From NCBI GenBank assembly GCA_944393725.1, contig CALYBC010000020.1, positions 6,103 through 70,102 on the forward strand: a DNA stretch of 64,000 bases, given 5' to 3'. The notes below the pieces were generated by a model. The model made no database searches. It was not told the origin of the DNA and saw only the letters and a list, made by a program, of their open reading frames with translations. This DNA comes from an uncultured Alphaproteobacteria bacterium. Lineage in GTDB: Bacteria; Pseudomonadota; Alphaproteobacteria; RF32; CAG-239. The position numbers and the translations under genes were made by a program. Positions 1 through 59,279 of this stretch are shown one piece after another; the first letter of the stretch is position 1; each line of letters starts with the position of its first letter.

Positions 1-1785
1 GTGAGCGCCGGTACCAACACCTGTGTTGCCTATACACCCAATCTTTTCGCCTTGTTTGACTTTACGTGAAGTGCCTGCCGCTCCGCCGCTACTCATTTTC
101 ATGTGTGCATAGTATGTTTTCCATGTATTGCCGCTTATGGAACCATGATCAATTATCGCATAATATCCATATCCCGTAACTGGTCCTGAGCCGTTTTTTC
201 TTTGAACCTTGTATGTTATAGTGCCCGGACCGGCTGCGACTACCGGATTGCATGGTGCCTTTGACCCTACGGCGGCATCTACACCGCTGTGTGTCTTTGA
301 GCATCCCTTACAAGGAGACGGGCGACAGCCAAACAGTGATGTTATCTGACCTCCAGCAAGACCTGGAATAAGCAAATTAGGTATTTGAGTTTGTGAAAAT
401 ACGGCTTCATTTTGCTTGGTAGCTGCAGCATCGTACTCCTTTTCCTCTTCGGTAAGGCCTGTATCTTCCTCGGTTTGTGAGGAATCCGGAAGCGGAGTTT
501 CTATTTGCGGAGTTTCTTTTTTTAATTCTTCTTCCAACATTGCAGTATCGTCATCGGTTATGGTATCCCAGCCTTCGGTATAGGATTTGATATCTTCGTC
601 CCAAAACTCCTGCCCCATAAGTGCGCCTACGCTCATAATCGGAGTAATGAAAAATTTACTGATTACACTAACTCCTTCGCTGATTACTATGTATGCAAGT
701 GCAACCTTAAATAACATCTTAAACAAGTCGTTTAGAATGTTACCGGTCTGAATTTCGGTGAATGATGAAACATTTTTTAGCCCCCAAAATGCAGCCCATA
801 GCAAAAATCCTACCAAGAGTATGCCGATACCGGCTTTTTGTGTTACGATTAAGCCTTTATTTGCTGCGTGTAAAAAGGCCGAGGTCAGCCTTTCTACAAC
901 CAAGCATGACCAGCAACCGGCCTGATATCTGGCCCTTAGCTGTTCGGAGGTCGGACAGGCCTGCAAAACCTTGGTCTCAATCTTTTTTGCTAATTTTTCC
1001 AGCTTTTCTTGCTTTTTGGTTTCTTGCGTTAACTCATATACTTCCGCTAGGCGGTTTTCGGTAGCTCTAACCATATTATCAAGCTCTATCTTGATGCTTT
1101 GATATTCACTTTCGTTTATGTAGCCATCTTTTTTCAAATTTTCCAGATTATTTTGCGCCTTTTGCGCTTGTCTTCTAAGATTGCGCCTGAACAATGTTTT
1201 ATTCATCGCTTTATCGTACCCCTCTTGGGTCGTATAAAGAGAAAGTTTGTCTAATGCCTCTTGCAGATATGTTGTATTGGGCAAATTGAAGAGGCCTTTT
1301 TCCGCAGCTGCCTCGTTTTTTGCGGCTTTCTCTAAAATCTTTTGGGTATTATCAGATAGCTTAATTTGTTCTTTATCGGCATAATAGTTACTTACTATTC
1401 TTTCTTTTTCTTCTGTACTATATTCTGCTTTGCTTGATTTTTTTAGTGCTTGCGTTTCTTCTTCTCCTGATAAGATTTTGCCGTCTTTATCAGTTGAGAT
1501 GCTAACTACATATTCTCCATTTTCCAGTGGCCTGTCTTTACCTACGCATTGGTATGTGGGCTCTTTCTCTACACACATGCCGCTCTCACTATCATGCCTT
1601 AGACAATCTGGTGAATCTTTGTGAATACATTGACTGGTATCAAGATTACAACTTGTATGACCACATAATATTGTTTCTGCCTTGGCTGCAGGAGAAAAAC
1701 CGTAAATGGCTACAAAAAACAGCACAAACATCATTATTTTGATGATGTGTCTGAATTTGATGATGTCGGCTCTGTTTTTTGTCAT
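1..1785 (-). CDS. Partial CDS (C-terminus lies off the left edge): Cys-rich N-domain, coiled coil and a VirB6-paralog-type CxxC/TM module, fused to an M23 (LytM) metallopeptidase domain
   Basis: Absent from the ORF track because there is no stop inside the window. The reverse complement of 1-1785 is one open frame (checked block by block for 1-960), starting at ATG 1785 with GGAGAA 6 nt upstream: MTKNRADIIKFRHIIKIMMFVLFFVAIYGFSPAAKAETILCGHTSCNLDTSQC... The middle part, AGCWSCLVVERLTSAF plus helices GIGILLVGFLLWAAFWGL and LFKVALAYIVISEGV, matches the CxxC-TM module of the neighbouring VirB6-like ORFs. The last ~110 codons give M23 motifs HSGVDAA, AAGPGTITY, GYGYYAIIDHG, TYYAHM and GEKIGCIGNTGVGTGAH. 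Confidence 0.75.
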   Translation of the reverse strand, partial: MTKNRADIIKFRHIIKIMMFVLFFVAIYGFSPAAKAETILCGHTSCNLDTSQCIHKDSPDCLRHDSESGMCVEKEPTYQCVGKDRPLENGEYVVSISTDKDGKILSGEEETQALKKSSKAEYSTEEKERIVSNYYADKEQIKLSDNTQKILEKAAKNEAAAEKGLFNLPNTTYLQEALDKLSLYTTQEGYDKAMNKTLFRRNLRRQAQKAQNNLENLKKDGYINESEYQSIKIELDNMVRATENRLAEVYELTQETKKQEKLEKLAKKIETKVLQACPTSEQLRARYQAGCWSCLVVERLTSAFLHAANKGLIVTQKAGIGILLVGFLLWAAFWGLKNVSSFTEIQTGNILNDLFKMLFKVALAYIVISEGVSVISKFFITPIMSVGALMGQEFWDEDIKSYTEGWDTITDDDTAMLEEELKKETPQIETPLPDSSQTEEDTGLTEEEKEYDAAATKQNEAVFSQTQIPNLLIPGLAGGQITSLFGCRPSPCKGCSKTHSGVDAAVGSKAPCNPVVAAGPGTITYKVQRKNGSGPVTGYGYYAIIDHGSISGNTWKTYYAHMKMSSGGAAGTSRKVKQGEKIGCIGNTGVGTGAH

Positions 1786-1806
1786 TGTTTTCTCCAATTA
1801 TATATA

Positions 1807-3111
1807 TTATTTGCGTCCCGCTATGCGAGCCATCTTGGCTTTGGCGGCAGAAGAGAGTTCATATGCTCTACCGGCCCAACGTATTAGCTTCCATGATGAC
1901 TGCGGTGCCAGTGATAAGCCGAAGGTTAATAAATTGCTTACACCTTTTAATATAGCGCCACCGATTGCCTGAGCTGCAGCCTTGAGGTTCTTTTGGAAGT
2001 TTGCACTCAAACCTACTCCGAGCAATGCCGAGGTTAACTGCTGAGAAACACCCATAGAACCATATATCAAGAAACCAATCAACAGCAGACATAAAAATCC
2101 GATGCTTATATCTTGCATATTGGCTTGAGCGTCTTCGGGATTAAATATACTGGGGTTGTTTTGTATTAAAGACACCATCGCCGTGAGCACCAATGCAATG
2201 ATTACGGAAAAACACATCATAAAGGCGGCAGAAGCCAAAATATGAACAAAACCTTTCTTGGTCCACTCCCTTGTGGGACCAAATGCGTAGCAAACTACAT
2301 AAAACGGTAGTAAAATTATGATTATTCCCATTTGGAATATGGTATCAACCAAGTAAAACGAGAATCCAATCTTAACAACCCAAAAAAACAGGTACAACAA
2401 TATTCCCATAATCTTACTGGTAATGTTTAACCCACCTTGGTTCATTACCTCTATGGCGATATCGCCACCAATGGTCAGATATCGGGAGGCCATCATTATC
2501 ATACAAAACATAGTATCTCTTATTGCCGTCGGAAATTCTCCGTTTTTAGATAAGAGGTCACCACCTATTGAGCAAGACATATCTACATCCGCTACATCTA
2601 TCGGAGTGCCAAAAACCTCAAAACCCTGATCAACGGCAGTGGTTAATGAAGTACTTAAAATATCGGTACCCAATTTTAGAAACGCCAGATAAACAGGAAA
2701 AACCAATGTATTGATTACATAAAGTATGCCCGTATTTGAGGAGGCCAATATTCCGCATATTCCGCAAACAAAAGCTTTGCGTATAATTTCGTTCCAGACC
2801 TCTCCGACATTGCTCTCGGTTACCGAACTTACATATTTTAGCAGTCGCAAAGCTAACCAAACCGAAAATGCTACCGCGATAACCGGCATGGCCGCAGATG
2901 TGAAGTTGCCGTACATGACTCCAACTTGTTTACTTACGGCATCAAATATGGTGGTTAGAATAACGCAACTTAAACAGTCTGCATCACTGGTATCAACTTC
3001 ACCGCTGGTAAGTTGGTCGGGTTCATCTGAGCAAGCGCTGATAAATAACACCGCAACCAAGATTATGGCCAGTTTGCTAAATTTGTGGAGTATGTTGCGC
3101 CATTTAGTCAT
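1807..3111 (-). CDS. TrbL/VirB6-like polytopic membrane protein with a lipoprotein-type signal
   Basis: 434 aa with a lipobox-like LFISAC. The motif CLSCVILTTIF is followed by at least 6 hydrophobic helices. LVDTIFQMGIIIILLPFYVVCYAFGPTREWTKKGF is colinear with LLDAVVQLGIVGALLPFLVASWPFKITSKYTASGF (3122..5452) and FMDALLQLSVIGAMMPLMIAGWPFRATSQYASTGF (47478..49520). An RBS lies upstream and the gap to the next gene is 21 nt. Confidence 0.65.
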   Translation of the reverse strand: MTKWRNILHKFSKLAIILVAVLFISACSDEPDQLTSGEVDTSDADCLSCVILTTIFDAVSKQVGVMYGNFTSAAMPVIAVAFSVWLALRLLKYVSSVTESNVGEVWNEIIRKAFVCGICGILASSNTGILYVINTLVFPVYLAFLKLGTDILSTSLTTAVDQGFEVFGTPIDVADVDMSCSIGGDLLSKNGEFPTAIRDTMFCMIMMASRYLTIGGDIAIEVMNQGGLNITSKIMGILLYLFFWVVKIGFSFYLVDTIFQMGIIIILLPFYVVCYAFGPTREWTKKGFVHILASAAFMMCFSVIIALVLTAMVSLIQNNPSIFNPEDAQANMQDISIGFLCLLLIGFLIYGSMGVSQQLTSALLGVGLSANFQKNLKAAAQAIGGAILKGVSNLLTFGLSLAPQSSWKLIRWAGRAYELSSAAKAKMARIAGRK

Positions 3112-3121
3112 AGTTATCTCC

Positions 3122-5452
3122 TTACTCCAGATTATCTAATTTGTTGCGGCTAGGTCTGTGACCTTGGTGCGAAGTATTATCAACATTTGCCGTTTTTGTG
3201 TTTTTATTGTTGTTGGCCGAGGTTGAAGCCGGACGCGTAGCCGCGTTGGTGTCAGGCGAAGATTGGTTGCCTCCGGTAACATTTGCCGCGTTTTGAGTTT
3301 GACCATTTGCTGAGCCCGGCCTGTTTTCGGAATTGGTCTGTGCGGTAGGTTTGCTGCCTACATTTGCGGTTGTTCCGCCTTGAGCGCCGGTACCGCTGGA
3401 ATTAGGACGACCACCGGATTCAGAGTTGGCCGAAACCGGTCTGCTGTTACCTACATTCGCAGTCTTTTGAGGCTGCCCACCGCCATTATTACTCTGCGTT
3501 CCTTGGCTACTGCCGCTTGCACCTCCTCCGAGTCTGTTTTTGATAAAACGGCGAACCGGACGCAGGGTGGCAAGTCCGACTCCTTTATCTACGGCTTTAT
3601 TTGCAACTTTTTTGGCTTTGTCTTCCATATATTCGCCTATAGCCTCTCTGGTCGGTGCCGAAACTTTGCTGGCAAATCCTTTAACGGCACTAGCCCCCAT
3701 AGTGGCAAAACTCGGAGCAACCGGCTTAATACCTCCGCTGGAAAATTTGTTCGTCAAATCTGATACTTTAGACATCAGCATAAAGCCTAAAATACAGGCA
3801 AATATAAACATCAAAAATTCTACGCTCAAAACATTGACTAATTTTTTGAGTTTGGCCGTATCCACATTGTCCAGAGCTTCTATCAGACCACTGATTCCTG
3901 AAGAATCTTTCAGGCTTAGCGAACTATCAATTAGCGAAATGGCAACCGTAACTATCATGCCTATCATCATGAAGTTAAATACGCTGTTTAAAAACATCTT
4001 GAAACCGGAGGCGGTGTATTTAGAGGTAATCTTAAACGGCCAGCTGGCAACTAAAAACGGCAGTAATGCTCCCACTATGCCAAGCTGCACAACCGCATCA
4101 AGCAGATAAAATACAAACGCCAGCGACATTAAAAATCCAAAAACCCAGAAAAATATGGCATAAATTCGGCATTCCAACCCTAAACCAAATTCAAAACTTG
4201 GGCGTCCTATTATATATCTGCCGCCAAGACACCACAGTGAACTACCGATACTTTGCAACATGGCGTATTTTAGATTAACACTATAGGCCAAATTTTCTAA
4301 AAGAGCGTAGGTGCTAAAACTGTAGAATATATTTTCAAAATTGCGAGAATAATCCGACGGCATAGTTTTATCTACAGCCGCAAAAGCTTCCGGCGTCAGA
4401 GCATCAACGCCAAAACGATTGGCAATACTCTGTATTTCTCCTCCGGATAGCATACTGGTGCCAAAACTTAAACCGGCATTCAATATTGGCAGGATGATAA
4501 ACGAGAATATATCACCATAATAAACCAGTAAAAAGTAAGCTATCATAAATTTGTAACTTTGCTGCAACATCTCGGTTATATATTTGGCGGCATCTTGTTT
4601 GGTTAAAGAGCTGACAAAAACAAGAGTCTTGAGAGCAAGCCATATTACCAAACCAACTGCTATAACCGTGGCAAAGCTTGACGCAAATTTTGTTGCGGAA
4701 AGCTGTGTTATGTCATCGGCAGCCGCATATATTACACCCATTAATGAGCAGAATCGGCACTTACTGTTGTTATAAAGCATAACCGGAATAACATCACAGC
4801 CGCGACCTTTGGCATCTCCGGCAATAACCCGCACTTCATTTCCGATTGCTTTAACACAATATTGGGAAATATTTCCCGAGGCATTTTTAGCTGCGTAGCA
4901 TTCTTTTATTTTGTATTCCTTCTCTTTGGTCGTTCTAACTTCTTTTGTTGAAAGATTGGTTAGCTCAATTTTTTTACTTAAATTTTTATGAGTGCTTAAA
5001 TCCACTTCTGTCCAACCTAGGAGCTCTTTTAGCTCTTTGATTCTCTTACTATCTGATCTACTTACGCACTCGTATCTGTATACGATTTTATTCTTAGAAG
5101 TATTGCTAAATAGTATTCTAAAACCATTAAATGTACTACCAATATCATATTCTTTAACCATACAAACAGATGTCTCAATATTACATAGTTCTTTACCGCA
5201 CTCAATGATATTGGTGGGACGCTCATTCTCGCTTTCGCCAAAAATCTCTGAAAACCGACTAAACTCTGAGCTGTTTTTTTTCATAAAATCCCAAGCATTT
5301 TCCGGAGATACGGCGTCAACTCCGGTGGTGGAAGCTTTGTCTGCGGCCGAACAAACACTGCCAAACAGCGGCTGAAGCACTATCGCTGCCGCCAGAATTA
5401 ATATATGCAGTAATTTATTCCTTTTTTTCACCATCTTCTTCATCCCTTGCAA
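3122..5452 (-). CDS. Large VirB6/TrbL-like membrane protein with a Cys-rich periplasmic N-domain and a G/S/N/T/Q-rich C-terminal tail
   Basis: 776 aa with a signal peptide (LHILILAAAIVLQPLFGSVCSA). N-domain IIECGKELCNIETSVC, then CRFCSLMGVIYAAADD, then multiple TM helices, including the conserved LPFLVASWPF block shared with the other VirB6-like ORFs. The C-terminal ~170 aa are low complexity (ANVG-type repeats). The start is uncertain: the track uses TTG 5452, and ATG codons occur at 5443 and 5434. Confidence 0.7.
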   Translation of the reverse strand: MQGMKKMVKKRNKLLHILILAAAIVLQPLFGSVCSAADKASTTGVDAVSPENAWDFMKKNSSEFSRFSEIFGESENERPTNIIECGKELCNIETSVCMVKEYDIGSTFNGFRILFSNTSKNKIVYRYECVSRSDSKRIKELKELLGWTEVDLSTHKNLSKKIELTNLSTKEVRTTKEKEYKIKECYAAKNASGNISQYCVKAIGNEVRVIAGDAKGRGCDVIPVMLYNNSKCRFCSLMGVIYAAADDITQLSATKFASSFATVIAVGLVIWLALKTLVFVSSLTKQDAAKYITEMLQQSYKFMIAYFLLVYYGDIFSFIILPILNAGLSFGTSMLSGGEIQSIANRFGVDALTPEAFAAVDKTMPSDYSRNFENIFYSFSTYALLENLAYSVNLKYAMLQSIGSSLWCLGGRYIIGRPSFEFGLGLECRIYAIFFWVFGFLMSLAFVFYLLDAVVQLGIVGALLPFLVASWPFKITSKYTASGFKMFLNSVFNFMMIGMIVTVAISLIDSSLSLKDSSGISGLIEALDNVDTAKLKKLVNVLSVEFLMFIFACILGFMLMSKVSDLTNKFSSGGIKPVAPSFATMGASAVKGFASKVSAPTREAIGEYMEDKAKKVANKAVDKGVGLATLRPVRRFIKNRLGGGASGSSQGTQSNNGGGQPQKTANVGNSRPVSANSESGGRPNSSGTGAQGGTTANVGSKPTAQTNSENRPGSANGQTQNAANVTGGNQSSPDTNAATRPASTSANNNKNTKTANVDNTSHQGHRPSRNKLDNLE

Positions 5453-5820: not shown

Positions 5821-6792
5821 ATGGAAGAAATTATTTTTCCCAACCAAATCAGAATGTATCGCCGTTTGAGAGGCCGCTCTATGCAAGAGCTTGCCGATCA
5901 TCTTAATGTTTCATTGTCGGCCATATCCAAAATCGAAAAAGGATATCGCAGAGTCGATCAAGAGCAGTTGGTAAAAGTATCGGAATTTCTTGATTGCCCA
6001 TTACAGGATTTGTTCGTTAATGAGCAAAATTCTCAACAAGAAATCGTGTTGGCATGGAAAAGAGAACAGGAAAGACGCAACAAAATCAATGAAAAAAGCG
6101 GTCTTAAAACCTTGGGTGCCGGTTTGCGTCAAATCAGAAATGAAAAGAATCTGACTTTGATTGAAGTTGCAGAAAATGCAGATATGACTTTGTCGGTTTA
6201 TCACCGTATTGAGATGGGGCAACGAGAAGTTTCGGAAAAAGAAATGAAGAACATTGCCAAAGCATTAAAAGTCTCTGTTGATGAACTAAAAGCACAAATT
6301 AAAGATTTGGATGAAAAGGGATTCTTGGAAGAAATTATCCAGAGGAATGATGCCAAGTATAAATTGTTGTCAACACCGCGAGGCGCTATTGCTTCTTTTG
6401 TTTCTGCGACCCAAGAACTGCCTAAAATTCAGGTTTTTGGCACTGCCGGCAAAAATGGCGATCTGTTAATCAATTTTAATGAAGAAGTTAAGAGAATTGC
6501 TTCTCCATTAAATCCGCAAAGTGCTAAAGACTGCTACGCTCTCAATCTTTGCACCAGAAGATTGGGCAATCTCTTGCCTGCTCGCTCAATATTGTTCGTC
6601 AATTCGCAAGAACCGGTTAGTGTTGGCGATATTGCAGTTTATTATACAAGCGAAAATGAGGCCAAAGTAGTATCAATCAGAGAAGATGAGGACGGAAATA
6701 TGTTTGGCATGCAATGGAATCCTGATGAGAAAATAACTCTGTCCAATGACGATATGACAAAACTTCATAAGGTTATTTTTATTAGCTTGTAG
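5821..6792 (+). CDS. Tandem XRE-family HTH transcriptional regulator with a LexA/CI (S24)-like C-terminal domain
   Basis: 323 aa with two HTH units (IRMYRRLRGRSMQELADHLNVSLSAISKIEKG; LRQIRNEKNLTLIEVAENADMTLSVYHRIEMG). The C-terminal ~120 aa have an S24-like layout (IQVFGTAG, VSVGDIAVYY, KVVSI) but no obvious catalytic Ser. Divergent from the VirB6-like operon and followed by a terminator. Confidence 0.8.
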   Translation: MEEIIFPNQIRMYRRLRGRSMQELADHLNVSLSAISKIEKGYRRVDQEQLVKVSEFLDCPLQDLFVNEQNSQQEIVLAWKREQERRNKINEKSGLKTLGAGLRQIRNEKNLTLIEVAENADMTLSVYHRIEMGQREVSEKEMKNIAKALKVSVDELKAQIKDLDEKGFLEEIIQRNDAKYKLLSTPRGAIASFVSATQELPKIQVFGTAGKNGDLLINFNEEVKRIASPLNPQSAKDCYALNLCTRRLGNLLPARSILFVNSQEPVSVGDIAVYYTSENEAKVVSIREDEDGNMFGMQWNPDEKITLSNDDMTKLHKVIFISL

Positions 6793-9718: not shown

Positions 9719-12385
9719 TTAATCTTTTAGAACACTATTTTGGTATGGGTCGAAATCTTCATCCTCGGATTGCAGTAATTTTAACTTCTGTGGCGGGCTT
9801 GCGGGTAAAGTTGTATTTACATCGCTTCCTGATACTTCTTCCGGCATATAGTCATCGGAATAGTTATCATCATCTTCAACATAAACCCACTCCCAGTCTT
9901 GATCGGAGTTGTCATTACCGGCATCACTGTCTGACGGATAGGCAGCATTGTCTGGCGCATAATCATACTTCTCATCCTGAGGAACAATTTCGTCATTTTG
10001 AGAAAAGTCTTCGTTACTTGAGGCATCAAATCCCCAATCGTTGGCCTCTTCACCTTCATAATCATCAGATATTCTGATATTTGAAGTTGCCAACTCGGAA
10101 TTGCCGTCATCTTGTGTGCTAAATCCCCAATCAAAACTGCTTTCATCTGATGATTGCTCTTGGTTATTTTCATCACCAGAGATATAATATTCACTGTTGG
10201 TTTCATCCGAGGTAACTGCACCGGCGTCAGGATGAGGAACCTCTTCATCCGGTACAGTCTGCGGGTCTGTGTCGGCCGGCTCTTCCGGTTGATATGTGTA
10301 ATCATATGAAGGCGGCTCGTTTTCGGCTAGAGCTACTGTTTCTGTCGTGCCCCCGAAAGCGTCTGAATTATCAAGGTTGTTGTCCACAGAATTTTCATAT
10401 TCGTTGGGTTGAAGCTCATCATAATGATCCTGTTCGGTTGAGGCGGAAACTTCCGGTAAATCTTCGTAATCAAACTCTCCATTCGGTAACTCCAACGCCG
10501 CATCAAGAGATTGTGTTGCCTCATTATTTGCAACCTCAAAACCGGTATTGATTTCTGCGGTCGTATTTTTTTTCTTTTTCTTTTTCTTCTTTTTCTTCGT
10601 AACCGCCCCATCAGATACATTATCTGCATAGTTACCATCTTCAAAGGTATTGTCATATGTATCTTTGGAGACTGTTATATCTTGCGGCTCGTATATATTT
10701 TTTTCTACCTCGGAACTGGCGAATCTGTCACTTTGGGCAATATTGGCAGTCGTTTCTTGTTTAATCTGAGTTACCAACATCGGAGTTAGGATTTCTTTAA
10801 TTCCACGAGTAAAAGCTTCTATTAATTCTTCATTTTTGCGATTGCTTAATTTTCCAAAAATCTCTCCCTGAGCTTCAATCGCTCGGGTGATGGCTTTTTC
10901 AAGATTTTTCTCGTTTGATGCTTGCAATGATGAAATCTTGTTAATTAACTTTTCTATAGCCTCTTGGTCGCCCGAAAATGCTACAGGCGTAATGTGCTCA
11001 CCTTGGCTTGATGGCTGCGTATGATTCTCTGAAACCTTGGATATAACCGCTTTAATTAATTTTTCTTGCGAATCGTTTATCATTTTAAGCAGTTTTGCAC
11101 TATCGGCTTCTTTTGACGGTGATTGAGATGGAGAATCTGACCTGTTGTTCAGATTTTTTAACAGCTCTTCTTGTGTGGCTTTGAAGGCTTCAATGAGATT
11201 TATGTTGTCGTTTGCTTTGTTTAGCGACATTTCCTCAACCTTATCAAGGCGCAAATTTATCTGTTTCTGCCCTTCTATCACTGCCTCTATGAGTTTTTGC
11301 GTGGTAGAATCATCATACGCGGGGAGCGGAGCGGCAACCGTTCCGTCAGCAAGTTTGATTCCGCTTAGTGACTGGCCTAAACTTTTCTGACTTTGAATAA
11401 TCGCGTCGCAAAGCTCCTTTATTTCCGATGAGGTGGAACCATTATCACGACTGGATTTCAGACCCTCGGTAATCGCACTGCAAAGCTCTTTTATTTCTTT
11501 GTTTTGGTCTTCCCTTATACTCAGGTAATTATCCGATATGGTTTGCAGAAGTTCTTTTATATCTATTCCGCTTATACTTTCTCCGCCTGATGATGTAACT
11601 ACAGGTGTTTTATCAGCAATTACCTTGCATAATTCCTTAAATTCCTGCTGATGCTCGTTGTAACCTTCTTTGATGTTTTTTGCAATGTATAATTGTGTTT
11701 TGCTTATGTCCTGAACAAGCTTATCTAAACTCTCTTTTTGGAGTTGGCTTTGGTACTGCATGAGCGGGTGCAGGCTTTTGGCAAAGTCAGAGGCAAAATT
11801 CTCGCCTAAACTTATATTAACTTTTCCCGCTCCGATTGATGATGCTCCACCGGCAGCATTGTTTCCAAGTTCTTTTATTATCTTCTCCAGACTTTCTCTC
11901 TGAGTTGCAGCTTGCTGCTGCAGAAGCCCGGCGATGATTCTGGTAAATTCCGTAGAAAAATCTTTATCAAAACTTATTTTACCACTTACTGCGGTAACCG
12001 GCTGTGCTGATGATGAAGGAGGAACAGCTCCGAAGGCCGTTGCTTGAGTTGTTGTGTCAAAAACAGGCGATGGAGATGACGGTGTGTCTACGGCTTCTTC
12101 GCTTCCTTTATTGCCGCTCAGTTCGTCTATATAGTCTTGTAACATGGCTCCGCCTGGCAAAGTTGAGAATATACTCTTTACATCTGGCGACAGCTCAAGT
12201 AGCATCTTATTGAAGGCTTCGCGGCGTTCTCCGCTTAGTATGTGCATTTGGCGATAAATGTTTAGAAACCTTTGTGCAACGACAACAGGATCCTCGTCGC
12301 CTTTACGCAACGCCTTTCTTCTTGCCTCCGTCGTTCTGTTGGTTTCTGCTACCATTCTTGCACAATTACCTTTCGCAATATACAC
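9719..12385 (-). CDS. 888-aa cytoplasmic-type hyper-acidic protein, function unknown (occupies the position after virB11 where virD4 often sits)
   Basis: No TM or signal peptide. Basic N-terminus, internal repeats (FKELCKVIADK, IKELCSAITEG, IKELCDAIIQS), a run of 10-11 Lys, then ~300 aa of D/E/N/S/Y-rich sequence with FDWGF, NDWGFD and DWEWVY motifs. No Walker motifs, so it is not VirD4. Confidence 0.7.
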   Translation of the reverse strand: MYIAKGNCARMVAETNRTTEARRKALRKGDEDPVVVAQRFLNIYRQMHILSGERREAFNKMLLELSPDVKSIFSTLPGGAMLQDYIDELSGNKGSEEAVDTPSSPSPVFDTTTQATAFGAVPPSSSAQPVTAVSGKISFDKDFSTEFTRIIAGLLQQQAATQRESLEKIIKELGNNAAGGASSIGAGKVNISLGENFASDFAKSLHPLMQYQSQLQKESLDKLVQDISKTQLYIAKNIKEGYNEHQQEFKELCKVIADKTPVVTSSGGESISGIDIKELLQTISDNYLSIREDQNKEIKELCSAITEGLKSSRDNGSTSSEIKELCDAIIQSQKSLGQSLSGIKLADGTVAAPLPAYDDSTTQKLIEAVIEGQKQINLRLDKVEEMSLNKANDNINLIEAFKATQEELLKNLNNRSDSPSQSPSKEADSAKLLKMINDSQEKLIKAVISKVSENHTQPSSQGEHITPVAFSGDQEAIEKLINKISSLQASNEKNLEKAITRAIEAQGEIFGKLSNRKNEELIEAFTRGIKEILTPMLVTQIKQETTANIAQSDRFASSEVEKNIYEPQDITVSKDTYDNTFEDGNYADNVSDGAVTKKKKKKKKKKNTTAEINTGFEVANNEATQSLDAALELPNGEFDYEDLPEVSASTEQDHYDELQPNEYENSVDNNLDNSDAFGGTTETVALAENEPPSYDYTYQPEEPADTDPQTVPDEEVPHPDAGAVTSDETNSEYYISGDENNQEQSSDESSFDWGFSTQDDGNSELATSNIRISDDYEGEEANDWGFDASSNEDFSQNDEIVPQDEKYDYAPDNAAYPSDSDAGNDNSDQDWEWVYVEDDDNYSDDYMPEEVSGSDVNTTLPASPPQKLKLLQSEDEDFDPYQNSVLKD

Positions 12386-13451: not shown

Positions 13452-16400
13452 CTAAAACAGTGCCGGAACACTACCGCTTTCTCCCGTATCGGCCGTGCTG
13501 CCTGCCGGCGTTTGCGGTGTGGTCGCTATATTCCCCGACGAACTCGGCGGCGGAGGCGGAACCAGCGTCTTATTTTTCTTGGGGGCATCATCTATCAACA
13601 GGGGTTGTGTATCAGCGGCAGCCGCTTCGACATTGGCCTCGTCCGGATCATACACAACCTGTGTACTTGAAGCTTTGGCAACATCCTCGCGTTGTTTCTG
13701 ACGGCTCTCTTGGTCAGTCTTAACATCGTCGATTAAGATTTCTGGCTTTTGATACTTTTGTGATTCTTCTTCGTCGCGCTCTACGCTTCTTAGCCATAAA
13801 TCAGTGTTCGGATAAACAATTATACGCGTTCCGGCCGGAATATAGGTCATTGCTTTTACATCTGTCTTATCGGCCAATATGTCATCAAACAATTCTTCCA
13901 TATCGTCCAAGAAATTCTGACGAGCGTCGTTGGCTGCCTGTTGTTTTGAGGTTTCAATTTCCCCTGCGGCGTCATCAGCAGAGGCAATAAAATATGATGC
14001 TCCCGAAGATAAAACCGTGGTTACTACCGGTAAGGTATATTTCTTGAAGAGTTGCTGGTCAACATAACCTAGAGCTCCTGCTCTACCTTGAGCATCCGCA
14101 GTTTGGCCGCTAAACACAAAGATGGAGCCGTCGGGTCTGATTAATCTTTCCCAACTGATTTGAACTCGGGCAGATTCCGAGGTTGCCTCAGCCGCCGCAG
14201 TTATGCTACCGAAACTTCCTATCATACGCGAACCGGCCGGAATTATTATGTTGCGGCCTTCTTCCGCATATACATTCCTCTCGACATAGGCAGTGATAGG
14301 AGCTGGATTGTTGGTATCTATCGCACGCGCGATTACGGCAGGAATCGGCTTATCGGAGAATATCATTTCGCTCATATCAACTCTCCATGAAGAAATCGAC
14401 TTCGGTATACCTTGCTCGGACCAATCTTTTTGGTAGCCGTCAAAAGCCTCTTTGCGAACACTTGAACCGATGTGCCCAACACTGATGTTTTGTCTTCTCT
14501 CTTGCATTGCCGCTTCAAGTGCTGCTCTGCGGGTCGGGTCGTATCTTTCGCCGGGGCCATAACCTCCACCGGGGCCTAAGTTGGCAGCACTACCTTCACC
14601 GACGCCGTAAGCTCCTCCGGGACCAAAGCTGCCGGCAGGAACAAATACTTTTCCGTCATCTTCTTTATCGCCAAAGTCTTCGGTACCTATCAGATTGCCC
14701 TCACTGTCTATTATTAAGCCGTCAGGTGTACGATATCCAATTATATTCCCTTTATCGTCAATAACCGTATCATTTTCCAAAATCTCACCAAGATACTCGC
14801 CGTCAGGGGTTAGAGCGATACCTAAAGATTTGTAATATTTGGGGTCTTCCAGCATTTTTAGTGCCGGTGATACATCTTCTTCTTGGGGCTGTTTTAGAGA
14901 ATCCAATATCGAAGTCTTATCAAACCAACTTCGTGTTTCGTCTTTTTCTGCGTCGGCCTTAGCTTTGGCTGCCGCTTCTGCTTCGGCCTTAGCTCTGGCC
15001 TCAGCCTCTGCCTTAGCTTTAGCCGCCGCCTCTGCTTCATCCACCGGAACCAATAGTTTATCTTTGTTAAAGTCATAATACTGTAATGGTCTTGCTTTAA
15101 CTATAAACTCGCCATTGTCTTTTACAATACTGCCACCGGAATTTATACTGCCTATAACATTGCCCAGATTGTCATAAACCTTACCATCTAAAGATAATTT
15201 TCCAAGAACCAAATTGGTATTGTCTCTGATATTGTAATCACGATTACCGCGACCAACTACTTGCTCCCCTTTTATAACAAAACCTAAATCATATTTGCCT
15301 AAGCTTTGGTTGTTGAAACCAAAAGCTTCGCCATTGCGGTTGACCAAACCTATAACTTGTCCGGAATTATCATAAATGTATAGATCATAGAGAGCATAAC
15401 CGATATTTTTTTCATCAGAAACAACATAGCCGTCGTAATTCACATCACCCAAAATCTCGCCTGTTGCCGATATTACCTTCCCTTGTGATGACACTCTGCC
15501 GATATATTTGTTAGACATATCAAAAGCAACCTTATACTTAAACAAATTTCCCAGAGGCAGACCGGCATTGGAATTAACATTATCATTGGGTTGCAGATAT
15601 CCTATGAGTTCATCATCATCATCGACTATTAAACCGTTTACCGTTGTGTATCCGATTATATTGCCGGCAAAGTCAATAACCGAATTAAACTCAACAGCCT
15701 TTCCGATTAGGGCTTTATTTTCGTTATATAGCTGTTTATTGTAGTCCAAACAGCCAACCTGACTACCAGTTTCATTATAAACTTTGCCGTCATTTGAAAC
15801 AAACCCTATGGTGCGACCATTAAAATCAACAACAGGCGATTGAGCTACTTTATAGCCGACCACAGCACCGCTGTCGCTGATAACAAAATCATTAGCCAAC
15901 AATTTGCCGACATATACATCTCTGTAGTTGTAAACATTTCCGTTAAAGGAAACAACGCCTATGGTTTCGCATTTGTCATTAACGGCTACACCTTGAGAAG
16001 ATAAATATCCGTTGACAATTCCGTTGTTGTCAGTACTGAGCATTCCTTCAACGACTTTACCTATTTTTGAGCCTGAGGAGTTTTTTACATTGCCGGCTAT
16101 GTCGGTGTACCCGATAAAATTACCGTTAAAGTCTAAAACCGTACCGCCATTATATGCAAAACCAATCTTGGGCATATAATTAAAATTACCTGATTGGGAT
16201 TTAGCTACGCTTGTATCCGGTAAGATTTTTCCAATATCGCTGAAAGAACGATCCAAAATGTTATTGTGATAGCTTATATTACCAAGAGTATTTCCATCAT
16301 TGTCAACAGCAACATAGTCCTTTATCTCTGAGGCAATTAGTTGGTTTTGCGGATTTAGCACATAGCCCGAGCCGACAATTTTACCGAGTTCAGCACCTTT

Positions 16401-17798
16401 GGAACTATAGGCTTTACCATCAAAGCCCAAATAAGACGAGATACTACCAAATGGTGTGTAAAAAGCCTTGGAAACGAGAGCTTGTCCGACCAAATTTCCG
16501 TCTGCGGAAAAGACATAACCTTGCGGCGAAACCGCAAGTGAGCTTTCTTTGCTCTTTATTTGGGAAGAGATTCCGCTAACGCCCAAAAATTTTCCGTCTG
16601 CCGAATATACCATTTGCGGAGAGCTAACAGCACCTATCATGCGGCCGGACAGATTATAGGCCTGGTTTCCGACCATATAACCTATAGAAGTGCCGCTTAG
16701 TGCAATAACACCGCCATTACTTAGGGCGTGCCCCACTAAAGCCCCTTTAAAATCAAATACCGGCCCGGTGGATATAATCTTACCCACAATTGCTCCAGAA
16801 CCGTCAGTTACGACACCTCTGGCTGCAATCAAGCCGCTGAACTTATCTCCTCTGGCGATATTGCCTTGCGGTAATAAACGACCAAGATATCTGCCGTTAA
16901 GATCGGTTGCCGTGGCAGAAAAACTTTCCGAACGACCACTTATATTGCCTTTAGCATCGATAATATATCCATCAGCGCGTATTTTACCTACCGACTTGTT
17001 ATCATCTATAATATCGCCGTTATAGCTAACGAAACCTAAATAAAAACCTTTGTCATCAAAAGCGTAGCCGCTGTTTACAATCCGACCGATAACCGCCCCG
17101 TCATTATTGTAAACAAAGCCATTGGCTCGTAAATGACCGATAACCACGGAATTAAAATCTGTAACCTCACCTCCGGGAACAACACTGCCAATGAAATCGC
17201 CGTTTAAGGATATTACCATGCGCGATGATATCAAACGCCCATCAAGTAAATAGTCATTACCGACTTTGCGATAAGCATAGCCGTCCGGAGTAACAATACC
17301 AATTTGCTGTCCGCTTAAATTTGCATACAAACCATCACCGGTAATGCGACCTGATATTTTTCCTTCGTCATTATAAACAAGGCCTGGAAACACAACTTGT
17401 CCTAAAATGTCAAAATATTCGTTAACCACCAAACCATTAGGTAGTGTTTTGCCCACAACTTGCCCCGAAGAACTCCTTACCGTCCCGTCGCTATTTACTT
17501 TACCCAAGAATCTGGCGTCATTTCCTATGGCTACGCCTTGCGGGACGACGCCGCCGATAATCTGCCCGTCGGAATCGAGAATAAGACTGTCTGCGGTTAT
17601 ATTGCCCAAAAGTTTGTTATCTAAACTTACAACCTTGCCGTCGGGAATTACTTTTCCTAAAACGGTGCCGTTAAAATCAATCGCCGTTATTTCTTGAGAA
17701 AACGCAGGACAAGCACAAACAATGACAGACAAAACAACTGCCGTAAAATTTATGAATAAATTATGTAGCTTCCTTATTTGCAATAATCTCATATTCAA
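13452..17798 (-). CDS. virB10: VirB10/TrbI-family protein with about 900 aa of beta-hairpin repeats and a TolA-like Ala/Lys/Glu helix between the membrane anchor and the barrel, plus a ~110-aa C-terminal tail
   Basis: 1448 aa with N-terminal anchor FINFTAVVLSVIVCACPAFS. Residues ~40-905 are 17-22-aa units (e.g. DFNGTVLGKVIPDGKVV, DSDGQIIGGVVPQGVAI). Next comes AEAAAKAKAEAEARAKAEAEAAAKAKADAE. The TrbI/VirB10 core (about 13760-14420) has the motifs IPAVIARAIDTNNPAPITAYVERNVY, IIIPAGSRMIGSFGS, RVQISWERLIRPDGS, DAQGRAGALGYVDQQL and IPAGTRIIVYPNTDL. The tail contains PPPPP. Confidence 0.9.
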   Translation of the reverse strand: MNMRLLQIRKLHNLFINFTAVVLSVIVCACPAFSQEITAIDFNGTVLGKVIPDGKVVSLDNKLLGNITADSLILDSDGQIIGGVVPQGVAIGNDARFLGKVNSDGTVRSSSGQVVGKTLPNGLVVNEYFDILGQVVFPGLVYNDEGKISGRITGDGLYANLSGQQIGIVTPDGYAYRKVGNDYLLDGRLISSRMVISLNGDFIGSVVPGGEVTDFNSVVIGHLRANGFVYNNDGAVIGRIVNSGYAFDDKGFYLGFVSYNGDIIDDNKSVGKIRADGYIIDAKGNISGRSESFSATATDLNGRYLGRLLPQGNIARGDKFSGLIAARGVVTDGSGAIVGKIISTGPVFDFKGALVGHALSNGGVIALSGTSIGYMVGNQAYNLSGRMIGAVSSPQMVYSADGKFLGVSGISSQIKSKESSLAVSPQGYVFSADGNLVGQALVSKAFYTPFGSISSYLGFDGKAYSSKGAELGKIVGSGYVLNPQNQLIASEIKDYVAVDNDGNTLGNISYHNNILDRSFSDIGKILPDTSVAKSQSGNFNYMPKIGFAYNGGTVLDFNGNFIGYTDIAGNVKNSSGSKIGKVVEGMLSTDNNGIVNGYLSSQGVAVNDKCETIGVVSFNGNVYNYRDVYVGKLLANDFVISDSGAVVGYKVAQSPVVDFNGRTIGFVSNDGKVYNETGSQVGCLDYNKQLYNENKALIGKAVEFNSVIDFAGNIIGYTTVNGLIVDDDDELIGYLQPNDNVNSNAGLPLGNLFKYKVAFDMSNKYIGRVSSQGKVISATGEILGDVNYDGYVVSDEKNIGYALYDLYIYDNSGQVIGLVNRNGEAFGFNNQSLGKYDLGFVIKGEQVVGRGNRDYNIRDNTNLVLGKLSLDGKVYDNLGNVIGSINSGGSIVKDNGEFIVKARPLQYYDFNKDKLLVPVDEAEAAAKAKAEAEARAKAEAEAAAKAKADAEKDETRSWFDKTSILDSLKQPQEEDVSPALKMLEDPKYYKSLGIALTPDGEYLGEILENDTVIDDKGNIIGYRTPDGLIIDSEGNLIGTEDFGDKEDDGKVFVPAGSFGPGGAYGVGEGSAANLGPGGGYGPGERYDPTRRAALEAAMQERRQNISVGHIGSSVRKEAFDGYQKDWSEQGIPKSISSWRVDMSEMIFSDKPIPAVIARAIDTNNPAPITAYVERNVYAEEGRNIIIPAGSRMIGSFGSITAAAEATSESARVQISWERLIRPDGSIFVFSGQTADAQGRAGALGYVDQQLFKKYTLPVVTTVLSSGASYFIASADDAAGEIETSKQQAANDARQNFLDDMEELFDDILADKTDVKAMTYIPAGTRIIVYPNTDLWLRSVERDEEESQKYQKPEILIDDVKTDQESRQKQREDVAKASSTQVVYDPDEANVEAAAADTQPLLIDDAPKKNKTLVPPPPPSSSGNIATTPQTPAGSTADTGESGSVPALF

Positions 17799-20700
17799 TT
17801 CCTCTGGTTTTTGGCGACCTCGCCTAAAACATATCCGGAAACATTTTTATCCAAATCTATAAATGAGCCGTTGCTCTTTATATAGCCAATATTTTCGCCA
17901 TTATTGTCAATAACTGTGCCATCATAAGATAACCGCCCTTTATATTTGCCGTCGTTGCCCAGTATTGTGGCTCCTATTTTATAAATTTTTCCCAATATCC
18001 TATCGTTCAAATCAATAGCCAATCCTCCGGACAGCATTCTGCCGATTATACTAGCATCTTTGCCGGTAATTGTGCCATCAAAATTTACATAACCCACAAC
18101 TTTATCATCATTGGATATTACTATGTCGCCACTTACTACCTCGCCGATAATTTTTCCGGATACTCCGATAATATTGTTGTCAGATAAAACTTTTCCTAAC
18201 GAAACACCGGCAAAATCAGTTACAGCACCGTCGGGAGACACCGATCCGATTACATTACCGCCAAAATCAACTGCAAACCCCGGATGTAGTATGTGGAGAT
18301 TTTTATCTGTTCCACCACCTGGCAGAATGGCCGTCACAATTTTCCCCGAGGGATCCAATACATCACCGAGCGAGTTAAGATATCCTTTATAATTTCCGAG
18401 GGCATCAATCATTATCCCTTCGGGTATTACTTCGCCGATGACTTCGCCGTCTTGGTTAACGACTTTTTTGTCGTGCGTTACCTGTGCCACATTTTTTCCA
18501 TCTAAACTTATTACCTTACCATCAGAAACAGCATAACCAATATATGAACCATCATAACCTATTGCGGCACCTTTTCTGATTAAACCGCCCTGATATTCGC
18601 CTTTCATATTAAAAAATTCGCCTTTGGCATTAAGCTTACCTAAGGTGTCGCCATAGCGGCTAAAGACTGTTCCGTCGTCGACTGAAGTTCCGACAACATT
18701 ACCCTTGGTATCAATAACTTCTCCTTGGAGCAATCTGGCGCCGTTTATATTGTTATATCGGCTCAAACCATTATTTTTTATGCTCCCTTGGGCAACTCCT
18801 TTGTTGTCATATATTTGCCCATCGGGAAACAATCGCCCGATAAGATTACCGCCGGAACTCGCAACAGAAGTTTTAGCAGGTACCGCAACGCCCAATATTT
18901 TGCCGCCTTCACCCAAAACAAAATTACCTGCCGTTAATCGTGCAGAGGGTTTGCCATATATGCGGACTTGCGCCTTATCATCAACACGGTTTATATATTC
19001 ACCTGAGGGCGTATAAGCGTAGCTTTCTCCTAATACGCGCCCTATATATACTCCCTTGGAATTAAATACATCGCCTAAGACCCCGACACAACCGACAGGA
19101 AGCTTGGCATCATTTATTACCATGTTGTCCATGCCTACTTTGCCAATATACCTGCCGTCTAAATCAACAGCTGCTCCTTGCTTGCCTACAGCCCCAATAA
19201 ATTCGCCGCGTTCGTTGAGTACACTGCCATCGGGATTTACACAGCCGACATAGCGATTGTTTAAGTCCTTGACTATGCCGGAATTATCAACCGTACCAAG
19301 CAAATTACAATTATTATCAAATACTCGACCGTTTTTTAGAGTTTCTCCGATGTAACGCCCCTCTGAACTCAAAACCACTCCCTCCGGAGTTATTTTATAA
19401 TTGGTTTCTTCATTGCCTTTTTTTATCTTGCCGTCTTTGTCCAAATACCCAATTTGATTGCATCCGTAGCCTATTATCATACCGGCTCGAACCATTTTAG
19501 CAACGACCTTGGCCCCATTGGGATCTTTGACTAAACCATTGGGCAACGCTCTGCCGACAATTTGGTCTTTATCGTTTTTGATACTGCCGTCATTTTGCAG
19601 TGTGCCCAACAAATTACCCTGCGGAGTTATGGCTATTTTATCAAACATAACCAACTGTCCTAACACATTGGTCGCCGAATCAAAAACTATTTCCTCTCCG
19701 GCATAGCCGATAACTTCACCGTCGAGATTTACTATCGTTCCGTCAGGAAGCATTTTGCCAATAACATTGCCATTGGCATCCAGAAGATTTCCGTTTTCAT
19801 CAACATATCCAATTATATTGCCGTTGGCGTCATAAGCAACGCGAACTTTTTTACCATCAAGAGGCGAAGATTTCTTTATTATGTTGCCGTTGGCATCAAC
19901 ATAGCCAACAATATTCCCGTTCGCGTCAACAACCGTACCGTCGGGTAAAACAACGCCTAATACATTGCCGTTTTCATCTAAGGCCACGCGTCCGGGCTGC
20001 GTAACTCTGCCTATAACCTTGCCATTGAGATCGACCACCGTACCGTCGGGCATAACACGGCCGATTACATTGCCGTTTTCATCAACAACCGTACCATCGG
20101 GTAGTACACGACCGATTACATTGCCGTTTTCATCATAGACATAGCCGGTTTCAACCGCCCGGCCGATGACTTTACCATCTTTGTCAACAACCGTGCCGTC
20201 GGGCAATACACGACCGATTACATTACCGTCTAAATCAACAACCGAGCCATCAGGATTGACATAACCGATTAAATTGCCAAACTCATCATATACGGCTCGC
20301 CGATTTTCTGCCACGCCGATTACATTACCGTCTTTGTCAACTATCAGGCCGTCGGGCCCAACTTTTCCGATTATATTGCCGTTAGCATCTCTTACAAAGC
20401 CGTCTTCGTCTATAACACCTATAATCTTACCATCCGGTCCTATGGCATAGCGAACACCTTTGGTATTTTTATCTGATGTTGTCGTGCCACCGGGAGCTGT
20501 TTCGCAATATGTACAGTCTTCTTTGGTAACAGCATTGCCCGTTACCGGAACTTTAGCAGCCTTAATACTTGAATTACCTAAATTTACTTCGTGCCAGGAA
20601 ACAATGAAATTGTTTTGCACATTGCCGGCGACCACCGGAACCCAACTCATCGTAATGTGGCAGGTCTTGTCGCCTTCCAATGTCATGCCGGTACAACGGT

Positions 20701-51431: not shown

Positions 51432-52154
51432 ATGATGGGAAAATCTATTCAAAGGATTGCAAAGATGTACTTAAAAAAGAATTGTCTTCTGGCGGCGTTG
51501 TCTGTTGTCGCGTTGGGTGGGTGTAGTAATACCTACACTCTCTGGAGTTTGCCTTGGGAGGATGATGAACCGCAGGTAGAAGAAGTGGTGATATATACTC
51601 AGGAAGGCAACCAGCCCGTGCCGGCTGTTGCACCGACTGAGCAAAAAAACACCAATGACCGTTTTGTGGATTATAGAATGACCGATGCCGATTATAGGGA
51701 ATTCGGAGAGAGAGAGGTCACTGACCAGTATATCTTGGCAAATGGCGTAGGTAGCAATATGGCGGCCGCAATTCCGCCGACAATCGAAGAAGAGGTTACC
51801 GACTATGAGGAAGCCGTAAATGAGGCAATTTCCGATGCGGAAAATGCAAGTTCCGGTAATACCGAATACAACAGCGGCGACGACGCAGTAGAGGATTGGT
51901 TGGCCGAGGAAGGTTCTACTTTGAAGGGATTACTTTCGGATTGGTGCGAGAGATCGGGTTGGAGATTGGTTTGGAATTCCAACAGGAATTATACATTGGC
52001 TGCCGGAGCTATGTTCAGAGGAAGATTTGCCGATGTATCTTCGGCTCTAATTAGGAATTTTGCCAGAGCCAAACCGGCACCCATGGCCACTTTTTATAAA
52101 GGAAACCGCGTCTTAGTGGTTGAAACAAGGGAGGATGAAAATGCTTATAACTAA
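51432..52154 (+). CDS. PilL/TcpQ-like lipoprotein of type IVb pilus systems
   Basis: 240 aa with lipobox VALGGC and an acidic linker. The C-terminal LKGLLSDWCERSGWRLVWNSNRNYTLAAGAMFRGRFADVSSALIRNF ... YKGNRVLVV fits the TcpQ/PilL C-terminal pattern. Sits directly upstream of the secretin. Confidence 0.6.
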   Translation: MMGKSIQRIAKMYLKKNCLLAALSVVALGGCSNTYTLWSLPWEDDEPQVEEVVIYTQEGNQPVPAVAPTEQKNTNDRFVDYRMTDADYREFGEREVTDQYILANGVGSNMAAAIPPTIEEEVTDYEEAVNEAISDAENASSGNTEYNSGDDAVEDWLAEEGSTLKGLLSDWCERSGWRLVWNSNRNYTLAAGAMFRGRFADVSSALIRNFARAKPAPMATFYKGNRVLVVETREDENAYN

Positions 52155-53745: not shown

Positions 53746-53767
53746 CTTCTTTGCAGGAGATAAAAAA

Positions 53768-56417: not shown

Positions 56418-56444
56418 CTTTAATTTAATTGGTTAAGGTGGAAA

Positions 56445-58118: not shown

Positions 58119-58133
58119 TTTGAGGGCGATAAA

Positions 58134-59270: not shown

Positions 59271-59279
59271 GAAGTGATT

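Follow-up and report, generated by a model that had tools for sequence, protein, structure and literature searches.

What would a cell wall endopeptidase do inside a membrane subunit of a type IV secretion system (T4SS)? This question is raised by the left edge of a 64,000-nucleotide stretch of DNA from an uncultured alphaproteobacterium (GTDB lineage RF32, CAG-239; GenBank assembly GCA_944393725.1, contig CALYBC010000020.1, positions 6,103 to 70,102 of the forward strand), which is referred to here, at its full length, as the window. Positions 1–1785 of the minus strand encode the first 595 of the 997 amino acids of an extended VirB6-like subunit that carries an M23 (LytM-type) metallopeptidase domain in its central loop. 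The gene is the third in a tandem array of VirB6-like genes and lies inside a 43-kb minus-strand T4SS operon, in which Pfam profiles recognize a VirB2-like protein, VirB4, two VirB8, VirB9, VirB10, VirB11 and TrbL/VirB6. The reading preferred here, with a probability of about 0.6, is that the M23-bearing VirB6 is a machine-tethered substitute for VirB1, the enzyme that disrupts peptidoglycan locally for channel formation and is often non-essential (PMC12857230).

Under this reading, the chain would start with a signal peptide and a periplasmic Cys-rich and helical domain, pass through a CxxC motif into two membrane helices, enter the periplasm as a loop of ~370 residues bearing a complete M23 zinc endopeptidase between flexible linkers, and end, past the conserved hydrophobic core of VirB6, in a basic tail on the cytoplasmic side. 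The tethered enzyme would cut the peptide cross-links of the producer's own peptidoglycan at the place where the VirB6 platform or stalk assembles, and thus open the local gap for the channel, a task that normally falls to the soluble lytic transglycosylase VirB1.

The complete gene and its membrane architecture

The initial annotation of the window pointed to a minus-strand frame that is open from ATG 1785 to the window edge and absent from the supplied track of open reading frames (ORFs). Translation of window positions 1–1785 yields these 595 codons without a stop, and the frame is missing from the track because such listings omit ORFs that run off the end of the source sequence. The ATG at 1785 is a credible start codon given its context: a Shine-Dalgarno sequence, GGAGA (1791–1795, minus strand), lies 5 nt 5' of it and 21 nt past the TAA stop (1807–1809) of the preceding VirB6-like gene. 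The complete product was identified in the protein database as P0001, a 997-aa protein that is 100% identical to the window fragment, and all 1785 nt recur with 100% identity on L001, an independent metagenome contig that contains the complete gene (L001 5671–8664), the last 402 codons of which lie to the left of the window edge. The C-terminus, for which the annotation had proposed extending the contig leftward, is thereby available, and the frame is uninterrupted, with neither a stop codon nor a frameshift between the membrane module and the M23 domain.

An artefact, in the form of a misassembly, of a pseudogene with a frameshift or of a VirB6 gene with a housekeeping M23 gene next to it, might be suspected from the truncation of the gene by the window and from the metagenomic origin of all the data. 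Against this stand the independent, fully identical contig, the presence of the uninterrupted VirB6–M23 architecture in 24 independent species-level genomes and 57 protein clusters, and the purifying selection that is detectable, by the ratio of non-synonymous to synonymous substitution rates (dN/dS), on every segment of the gene. The independent contigs and the purifying selection rule out such explanations for all practical purposes, so that the probability left to them is negligible.

The modules that the initial annotation listed for the fragment can all be recognized in their proposed order (coordinates in brackets are window positions on the minus strand). Residues 1–36 (1678–1785) comprise a basic N-tail, with a net charge of +2.9 across 40 homologs, and a hydrophobic segment (residues 17–33), with AKA preceding E at the end; from hydropathy, this signal-peptide-like terminus is probably a Sec signal peptide or an N-terminal anchor. 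Residues 37–95 (1501–1677) form a Cys-rich beta module, with six cysteines at positions 41–80 and beta strands in the AlphaFold2 (AF2) model of the protein (mean predicted local distance difference test score, pLDDT, 72.7), and residues 96–276 (958–1500) form a helical, coiled-coil-like region, with a long helical stretch modeled at 108–275. Both are predicted to be periplasmic, and the latter, within the N-terminal domain, is the fastest-evolving part of the protein (dN/dS 0.183). The first block of the VirB6 core, delineated by paralog alignment and hydropathy, spans residues 277–395 (601–957) and includes C277, a CxxC motif and two long hydrophobic helices at about 314–336 and 353–378. The motif itself, C291-W-S-C294 (904–915), directly precedes these helices, where the long helix that runs on into the first membrane helix has its N-terminus, and aligns with a CxxC in 4/4 other paralogs; C277, C291 and C294 are invariant within the protein's own family. 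An acidic, partly disordered linker, residues 396–475 (361–600; pLDDT <50 at 398–407 and 429–442), then opens the central loop and leads into the M23 domain, residues 476–595 (1–360), which was delineated with PF01551, PDB sequences and Foldseek, is cut by the window edge and ends at about residue 612 of the full protein.

The annotation further held that the protein ends in the M23 domain. The domain is indeed there, at the edge, but the protein continues for 402 more residues beyond the window, which contain the main VirB6 core, so that what appeared to be a terminal domain is an insert of ~300 residues. The 385 residues after the M23 domain comprise four to five long hydrophobic helices (764–811, 818–843, 887–909) and a basic tail. 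When the protein is compared with each of its four paralogs using phmmer, similarity is confined to two collinear blocks, residues 277–395 and 701–960, which are separated by 20–80 aa in the paralogs and by 315 aa here; therefore, the M23 domain, together with its linkers, has been inserted into the central loop and is not a fusion at the C-terminus.

The central loop, a hydrophilic stretch of ~370 aa between the hydrophobic blocks, appears to face the periplasm. Across the 40 homologs, the N-terminal domain (net charge −6.0, mean Cys count 3.0) and the central loop (−9.4 and 8.4, respectively) have the composition of periplasmic segments, and the C-tail (+10.9, mean Cys count ~0) that of a cytoplasmic one. 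This pattern matches the topology of the Agrobacterium tumefaciens VirB6, which is said to have been mapped, in work attributed to Jakubowski et al. 2004, as N-out and C-in with a large central periplasmic loop. It is also consistent with the R388 structure, where VirB6 is anchored in the membrane by two N-proximal helices only, the remainder forming the periplasmic stalk base (PMC12857230). By analogy with either model, the insert would emerge in the periplasm right past the second membrane helix.

The assignment to the VirB6 family rests on transitive homology because the Pfam profile TrbL (PF04610) misses the protein: there is no match on P0001 at E<=0.1, nor on the excised core and three natural insert-free orthologs at E<=1. 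Two further orthologs score 25.9 bits (P0049), which equals the cut-off, and 22.0 bits (P0009). The links to the paralogs are stronger. The downstream 877-aa paralog (L001 8674–11307; TrbL 36.1 bits) is matched at 50.8 bits in phmmer, the unlinked 680-aa paralog (TrbL 28.8 bits) at 47.5 bits, the 776-aa paralog at 40.8 bits in two collinear blocks, and the upstream 434-aa paralog (TrbL 31.5 bits) at 17.6 bits. Alignment of the core family profile with those of the first, second and fourth paralog families of the array in hhalign gives probabilities of 99.8% (776 aa), 98.4% (434 aa) and 99.4% (877 aa), respectively. In Foldseek searches, the R388 TrwI/VirB6 chains are recurrent, statistically non-significant hits (7o3v_I, E 0.45, probability 0.66, TMt 0.41; also 8rtd_H and 8rt9_F). 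Moreover, the gene lies inside a T4SS cluster, and its product has at least five hydrophobic helices, which, together with the large hydrophilic domain represented by the central loop, corresponds to the definition of an extended VirB6 (PMC12857230). On these grounds of sequence and context, the protein is filed as an extended VirB6-family member, outside the direct reach of the Pfam profile. A tblastn search of 72,556 plasmids with the excised core and the 434-aa TrbL paralog as queries gave no match.

The CxxC motif is a common trait of all five VirB6-like paralogs (CWSC, CLSC, CRFC, CFFC and CTLC), in each case ahead of the first membrane helix. The approximate positions in the window, on the minus strand, are 2974–2985, 4748–4759 and 48921–48932, in addition to the one described above and that in the L001 8674–11307 gene. 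The helix N-terminus, where the motif is modeled, is the usual place for a redox-active or metal-binding CxxC.

The M23 domain and its active site

The Peptidase_M23 profile (PF01551), the search with which the annotation had proposed to check the domain, scores 41.5 bits on the window fragment and 56.6 bits on the full protein, well above the curated cut-off of 28.7 bits. The complete set of active-site motifs that had been read from the fragment is likewise in place. The zinc-binding HxxxD motif is H499-S-G-V-D503 (277–291, minus strand, as are the following two), the catalytic His of the M23 enzymes is H561 (103–105), in a YAHM context that aligns with the YAHM/YAHL of M23 structures, and H595 (1–3), on which the window stops exactly, is the first His of an H-L-H motif, the second of which, H597, lies just outside the window and is provided by P0001. 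All five residues are invariant in 29/29 M23-bearing homologs, down to 30% identity of the domain, and HxxxD together with HxH is found in 57/57 M23-bearing proteins of a wider set of relatives (see below). Thus, the metal-binding residues, the loss of which the annotation had named as grounds for abandoning its proposal, are all retained, and a degenerate LytM domain is ruled out by the invariance of the active site.

The fold is equally recognizable. The sequence matches in PDB are all M23 peptidases (9m7n Gp16, 3slu, 6muk, Csd3/TagE and ShyA), and residues 480–615 are modeled with block-mean pLDDT values of ~73–91. Foldseek comparison of the model retrieves the LytM domain of DipM as the best match (6.5e-5), followed by 6jmx (8.9e-5), lysostaphin (8.3e-4) and zoocin A (2.3e-3), and also a Campylobacter peptidoglycan peptidase, in agreement with the LytM beta-sheet fold. 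In the comparison with the closest ortholog (dS 0.47), dN/dS of the M23 segment is 0.041, on a par with the membrane core (0.020 and 0.043) and far lower than in the N-terminal domain. A phage origin of the module was considered and rejected, the similarity being generic and reaching at most about 41% identity. Taken together, these sequence features make the M23 domain look catalytically competent, with a predicted zinc endopeptidase activity.

The best structural match is, nevertheless, a regulatory domain, that of DipM, which brings up the possibility that the LytM domain acts without catalysis, as a peptidoglycan-binding anchor or positioner of the VirB6 platform or as a regulator of another hydrolase, in the manner of the degenerate LytM domains of EnvC, NlpD, DipM and PrgK. 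The LytM domain of PrgK is an inactive, regulatory one (PMC11323569), and the VirB9 encoded in this operon carries a wall-binding SPOR domain, so that wall anchoring does matter in this system. However, regulatory LytM domains have lost the HxxxD and HxH motifs (PMC11323569), whereas the five catalytic residues of the domain described here are invariant in the 29 homologs and across two fusion geometries. A non-catalytic role is, accordingly, considered improbable.

What occupies the loop in relatives

The distribution of the insert was traced in the window plus 10 kb on either side of each related locus, with one genome per species and 39 loci altogether. All 39 come from metagenome-assembled genomes (MAGs) of uncultured gut or rumen Alphaproteobacteria, and 37 contain a tandem array of four VirB6-like genes, encoding proteins of about 780, 440, 1000 and 850 aa. 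The loop of the third gene accommodates the M23 domain in 24 loci and an alternative domain of ~240 aa in 10; it is empty (30–50 aa) in three (L029, L030 and L035). In the remaining two loci (L039 and L040), it is the next paralog that carries an intact M23 domain, in its periplasmic N-terminal part, which is a second, independent M23 fusion geometry. On the tree of the core, the insert types are distributed patchily, with sister pairs that combine the alternative domain with M23 (L036/L008 and L022/L012) or with an empty loop (L031/L030 and L032/L035), which implies repeated swaps and losses. A profile search of 1.84 billion representative proteins extends this picture, with 225 relatives at E<=1e-30. 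Sorting of 189 family proteins by loop class, with local hidden Markov models (HMMs), yields 57 with M23 in the loop, 25 with the alternative domain, 76 with a short loop (17–70 aa), four with a large loop that neither HMM matches and 27 in which a single core block is detected, being incomplete or divergent.

In the alternative insert, a conserved Cys, positioned where a helix begins, is followed by an invariant His and an invariant Asn/Asp, which is the order seen in papain-like hydrolases. A weak Pfam match to NlpC_P60 was obtained for one of nine such inserts, a profile search of PDB produced no match, and Foldseek against PDB and BFVD returned nothing significant, with the weak hits consistently enriched in papain-like, NlpC/P60, CHAP and endolysin proteins. 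The alternative domain is therefore probably, not securely, a cell wall Cys peptidase, and the NlpC/P60-like label is provisional.

The most telling occupant of the loop comes from one of the four proteins with an unmatched large loop. This protein, P0090 (1661 aa; L041 10001–14986), the gene of which ends an equivalent array of large TrbL-type genes, contains an SLT domain in the same loop (PF01464, 53.4 bits compared with the cut-off of 21.3), with the motifs ES, GLMQ and AYNAG readable in the sequence. The same loop contains a GDSL/SGNH-hydrolase-like segment (29.7 bits, below the cut-off of 32.9), possibly, as a matter of speculation, a peptidoglycan O-acetyl esterase, and a stretch that resembles the alternative insert, making three putative wall-active modules together. 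Judging from its profile match and motifs, the slot in the P0090 lineage contains VirB1's own type of enzyme; hence, with SLT in P0090 and M23 elsewhere, the VirB6 loop is a slot for cell wall hydrolase modules. That the same slot takes an SLT domain with intact motifs also speaks against a LytM domain that merely binds the wall. A third insert type of ~320 aa, with a conserved 'AFGAHQLD' motif, is found in the other three proteins with an unmatched large loop, P0144 (loop ~397–716), P0154 and P0170; it has no match in Pfam or among PDB sequences.

The VirB1-substitute reading is favored because of the SLT domain in the same slot, the full conservation of the active site, the low dN/dS and the lack of a co-varying immunity gene. 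Integration of the wall-opening enzyme into the VirB6 platform in this lineage is also the most economical reading. Scans of the T4SS cluster of the window, with E-values up to 0.001–0.01 (up to 1 for ten unannotated ORFs that were rescanned), detected no SLT/VirB1 or lysozyme signal among its ORFs of 150 aa or longer. Within this scope, the view that no VirB1-type lytic transglycosylase is present here has held up. As the M23-bearing protein itself has no match to the SLT domain, the mark of the VirB1 family, it would be, at most, a functional analog of VirB1, not a family member.

Several observations weigh against this reading. The link of the protein to VirB6 is indirect, given the missing match of P0001 to the TrbL profile. 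The three insert-free species among the 39, along with many wider relatives, imply that the insert is dispensable or replaced elsewhere, which is compatible with the non-essentiality of VirB1 yet weakens the case. The genome could also have a separate gene for a VirB1-like transglycosylase at another location, a situation that has been proposed for Rickettsia (PMC2653234). Intact motifs are no proof of activity, and that of the M23 domain is a prediction; the assignment of the alternative insert, in turn, falls short of statistical security. Finally, patchy swapping of inserts among close relatives is a pattern that a weapon-like module would show, too.

The last point leads to an explanation that would turn the enzyme outward. 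The loop domain might be released by proteolysis at its flexible linkers or carried out with the stalk or pilus to attack the wall of a target bacterium, be it a recipient, a competitor or prey, on the model of the peptidoglycan-hydrolase effectors of bacteria-killing T4SSs, and a delivered effector of this kind was the alternative offered by the initial annotation. M23, NlpC/P60-like and SLT domains are also typical of antibacterial effectors. The cassette-like alternation of insert types between sister lineages and the disordered linkers modeled on both sides of the M23 domain fit such a weapon or penetration module, and there is a precedent for a processed T4SS subunit fragment in VirB1* (PMC2653234). 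However, the domain sits inside a structural subunit, where membrane or hydrophobic segments flank it, dN/dS of 0.04 is no sign of diversifying selection, and VirD4 was not detected in the window. The search for an adjacent immunity-like gene that the annotation had called for was carried out in 38 loci, the ORFs of which were all clustered down to a length of 70 aa, and no neighboring ORF family tracks the insert type (the best uncorrected p-value, 0.012, belongs to short antisense ORFs); the genes of the array abut or overlap, leaving no space for an immunity gene. It is possible that one resides elsewhere in the genome, outside the window and the loci. An X-Tfe-type effector, by comparison, is a separate secreted protein with a C-terminal VirD4-binding domain and an adjacent cognate immunity gene, a description that the M23-bearing VirB6 does not match. 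The delivered-effector option is thus disfavored, and the weapon module as a whole is considered unlikely.

A bolder and rather doubtful proposal combines elements of both views. The loop would be an exchangeable 'warhead' slot, occupied by M23, an NlpC/P60-like domain, SLT with a possible SGNH hydrolase, the P0144-type insert or nothing, the five paralogs would assemble the stalk base as a hetero-pentamer with the enzyme on a single protomer, and the wall of a contacted target might be breached as well. If true, these uncultured but widespread Alphaproteobacteria of the human gut would possess a T4SS into which a lytic device with swappable cassettes is built. As for the paralogs, there are five VirB6-like proteins in this genome (window 1–5452 and 47478–49520; L001 8674–11307), the VirB6 of R388 forms a pentamer (PMC12857230), and the RvhB6 proteins of Rickettsia also number five (PMC2653234); a hetero-pentameric stalk base is a speculation.

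The surrounding system and its known counterparts

Apart from the M23-bearing gene, the VirB6 array within the window consists of a 776-aa VirB6-like paralog (3122–5452, minus strand), which is the first gene of the array, is recognized by phmmer and hhalign and has no Pfam match of its own, and of a 434-aa VirB6/TrbL paralog (1807–3111, minus strand), the second gene, with a TrbL score of 31.5 bits (cut-off 25.9) and its CxxC at residue 46. The fifth, unlinked VirB6/TrbL paralog is located at 47478–49520 (minus strand; 680 aa). The rest of the T4SS operon (12471–42378, minus strand), annotated with Pfam and NCBIfam, encodes a VirB2-like protein, an 1853-aa protein, VirB4, unannotated ORFs, two VirB8, VirB9 with a SPOR domain, a beta-flower/RHS protein, VirB10 with beta-flower repeats and VirB11. 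All the T4SS components score far below the NCBI equivalog cut-offs, and the T4SS is therefore highly divergent. Pfam searches gave no match for the 1853-aa (36087–41648, minus strand) and 1277-aa (24505–28338, minus strand) proteins of the operon, and neither VirD4 nor a relaxase was detected anywhere in the window. The 888-aa ORF that follows VirB11 (9719–12385, minus strand) occupies the spot where a coupling protein might be expected; as a candidate for VirD4, it was dismissed, having no Pfam, NCBIfam or PDB support. Promoter-like sites on L001 occur at chance level and terminator-like sites are only modestly more numerous than the shuffled mean, with no site of either kind accounting for the array.

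Several neighbors have unusual features of their own. The VirB9/CagX homolog (21108–22682, minus strand) has a C-terminal SPOR domain (PF05036, 22.4 bits compared with the cut-off of 21; residues 440–522), and the presence of this peptidoglycan-binding module on a subunit of the outer-membrane core suggests that the machine is physically coupled to the sacculus. The VirB10/TrbI homolog (13452–17798, minus strand) is a 1448-aa protein in which about ten beta-flower repeats precede the TrbI domain, and the neighboring 1101-aa protein (17795–21100, minus strand) combines beta-flower, DUF3659 and RHS repeats; such giant repeat proteins are unusual for a T4SS operon. Within the operon, just upstream of the VirB6 array, lies a divergently oriented gene (5821–6792, plus strand) for a regulator that has two HTH_3 (Cro/C1-type) domains in tandem; this arrangement is conserved in L001. 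Farther away, a type IVb pilus cluster (51432–60585, plus strand) encodes a TcpQ-like protein, a secretin, a PilO-like protein, a T2SSE ATPase, a T2SSF platform protein and two bundlin/PilS-like pilins, and is adjoined by a gene for a patatin-like phospholipase (60642–61511, plus strand).

Tandem arrays of extended VirB6 paralogs are already known from Rickettsiales (PMC2653234), as are T4SS-dedicated wall hydrolases. According to a 2025 review, all known Gram-negative VirB1 homologs are soluble SLT enzymes of the GAMMA class, membrane-anchored LytM, SLT and CHAP enzymes are a feature of Gram-positive T4SSs, and what the large hydrophilic domains contribute to extended VirB6 proteins is described as 'not yet known' (PMC12857230). 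In literature searches, no account of a VirB6 carrying an M23 or other hydrolase domain turned up, and none of the T4SS of this gut lineage. For one extended-VirB6 family, then, there is a testable answer: the central domain would be a cell wall hydrolase that forms part of the stalk or platform subunit. The exchange of M23, a probable Cys peptidase and SLT in one slot suggests a different route of a T4SS through the sacculus, closer to that of the Gram-positive systems, and the natural series of M23, alternative, SLT and empty loops should be useful for dissecting how wall remodeling is coupled to T4SS assembly. At the same time, a lineage-wide, highly divergent T4SS is flagged in gut and rumen Alphaproteobacteria that are represented by uncultured MAGs.

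Among the closest known systems are those of the Rickettsiales. The RvhB6a-e proteins and the VirB6 proteins of Anaplasma and Ehrlichia also come as tandem arrays of large VirB6/TrbL proteins with big hydrophilic additions, the VirB6/TrbL-domain proteins of Rickettsia being 674–1154 aa long (PMC2653234), and these, too, are alphaproteobacterial, chromosomally conserved T4SSs with duplicated VirB8 (PMC2653234; PMC12857230). The rvh-type systems have duplicated VirB4 and VirB9, lack VirB5 and are scattered in islets. The system described here shares the VirB6 array and the two VirB8, and VirB5 has no match, whereas only one VirB4 and one VirB9 are seen, the whole system forms one contiguous cluster, and the carriers are gut and rumen MAGs. 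The hydrophilic regions of the Rickettsiales VirB6 are not assigned any enzymatic domain in the cited sources (PMC2653234; PMC12857230), and the review states that their role 'is not yet known' (PMC12857230); in contrast, the central domain here is an identifiable, intact M23 or, in relatives, another hydrolase.

With VirB1, the shared element would be the proposed local opening of the producer's peptidoglycan, and P0090 has an SLT domain in the same slot. The difference lies in the means: VirB1 is a protein of its own, an SLT enzyme that is soluble in the periplasm and cleaves glycan strands, whereas the M23 domain would target peptide cross-links and is covalently part of VirB6. The free M23 enzymes, such as lysostaphin, LytM, ShyA/MepM and Csd3, have the same fold and the full active site (HxxxD, H and HxH); however, they are secreted or lipid-anchored stand-alone proteins that serve growth, shape or killing, and none of them is known to be inserted in this way, within a polytopic subunit of a secretion system.

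As membrane-tethered wall enzymes of T4SSs, the nearest counterparts are PrgK of pCF10 and TraG of pIP501, with their LytM-, SLT- and CHAP-type modules (PMC11323569; PMC12857230), and the repertoire of the VirB6 slot, with M23, a probable NlpC/P60-like domain and SLT, is strikingly similar to these Gram-positive modules. PrgK, however, is a protein separate from VirB6, with a single transmembrane helix and a degenerate, inactive LytM domain (PMC11323569), whereas the system described here belongs to an alphaproteobacterium, its cluster encodes the outer-membrane-complex subunits VirB9 and VirB10, and it is VirB6 itself that carries the putative wall-active module, with an intact M23 site.

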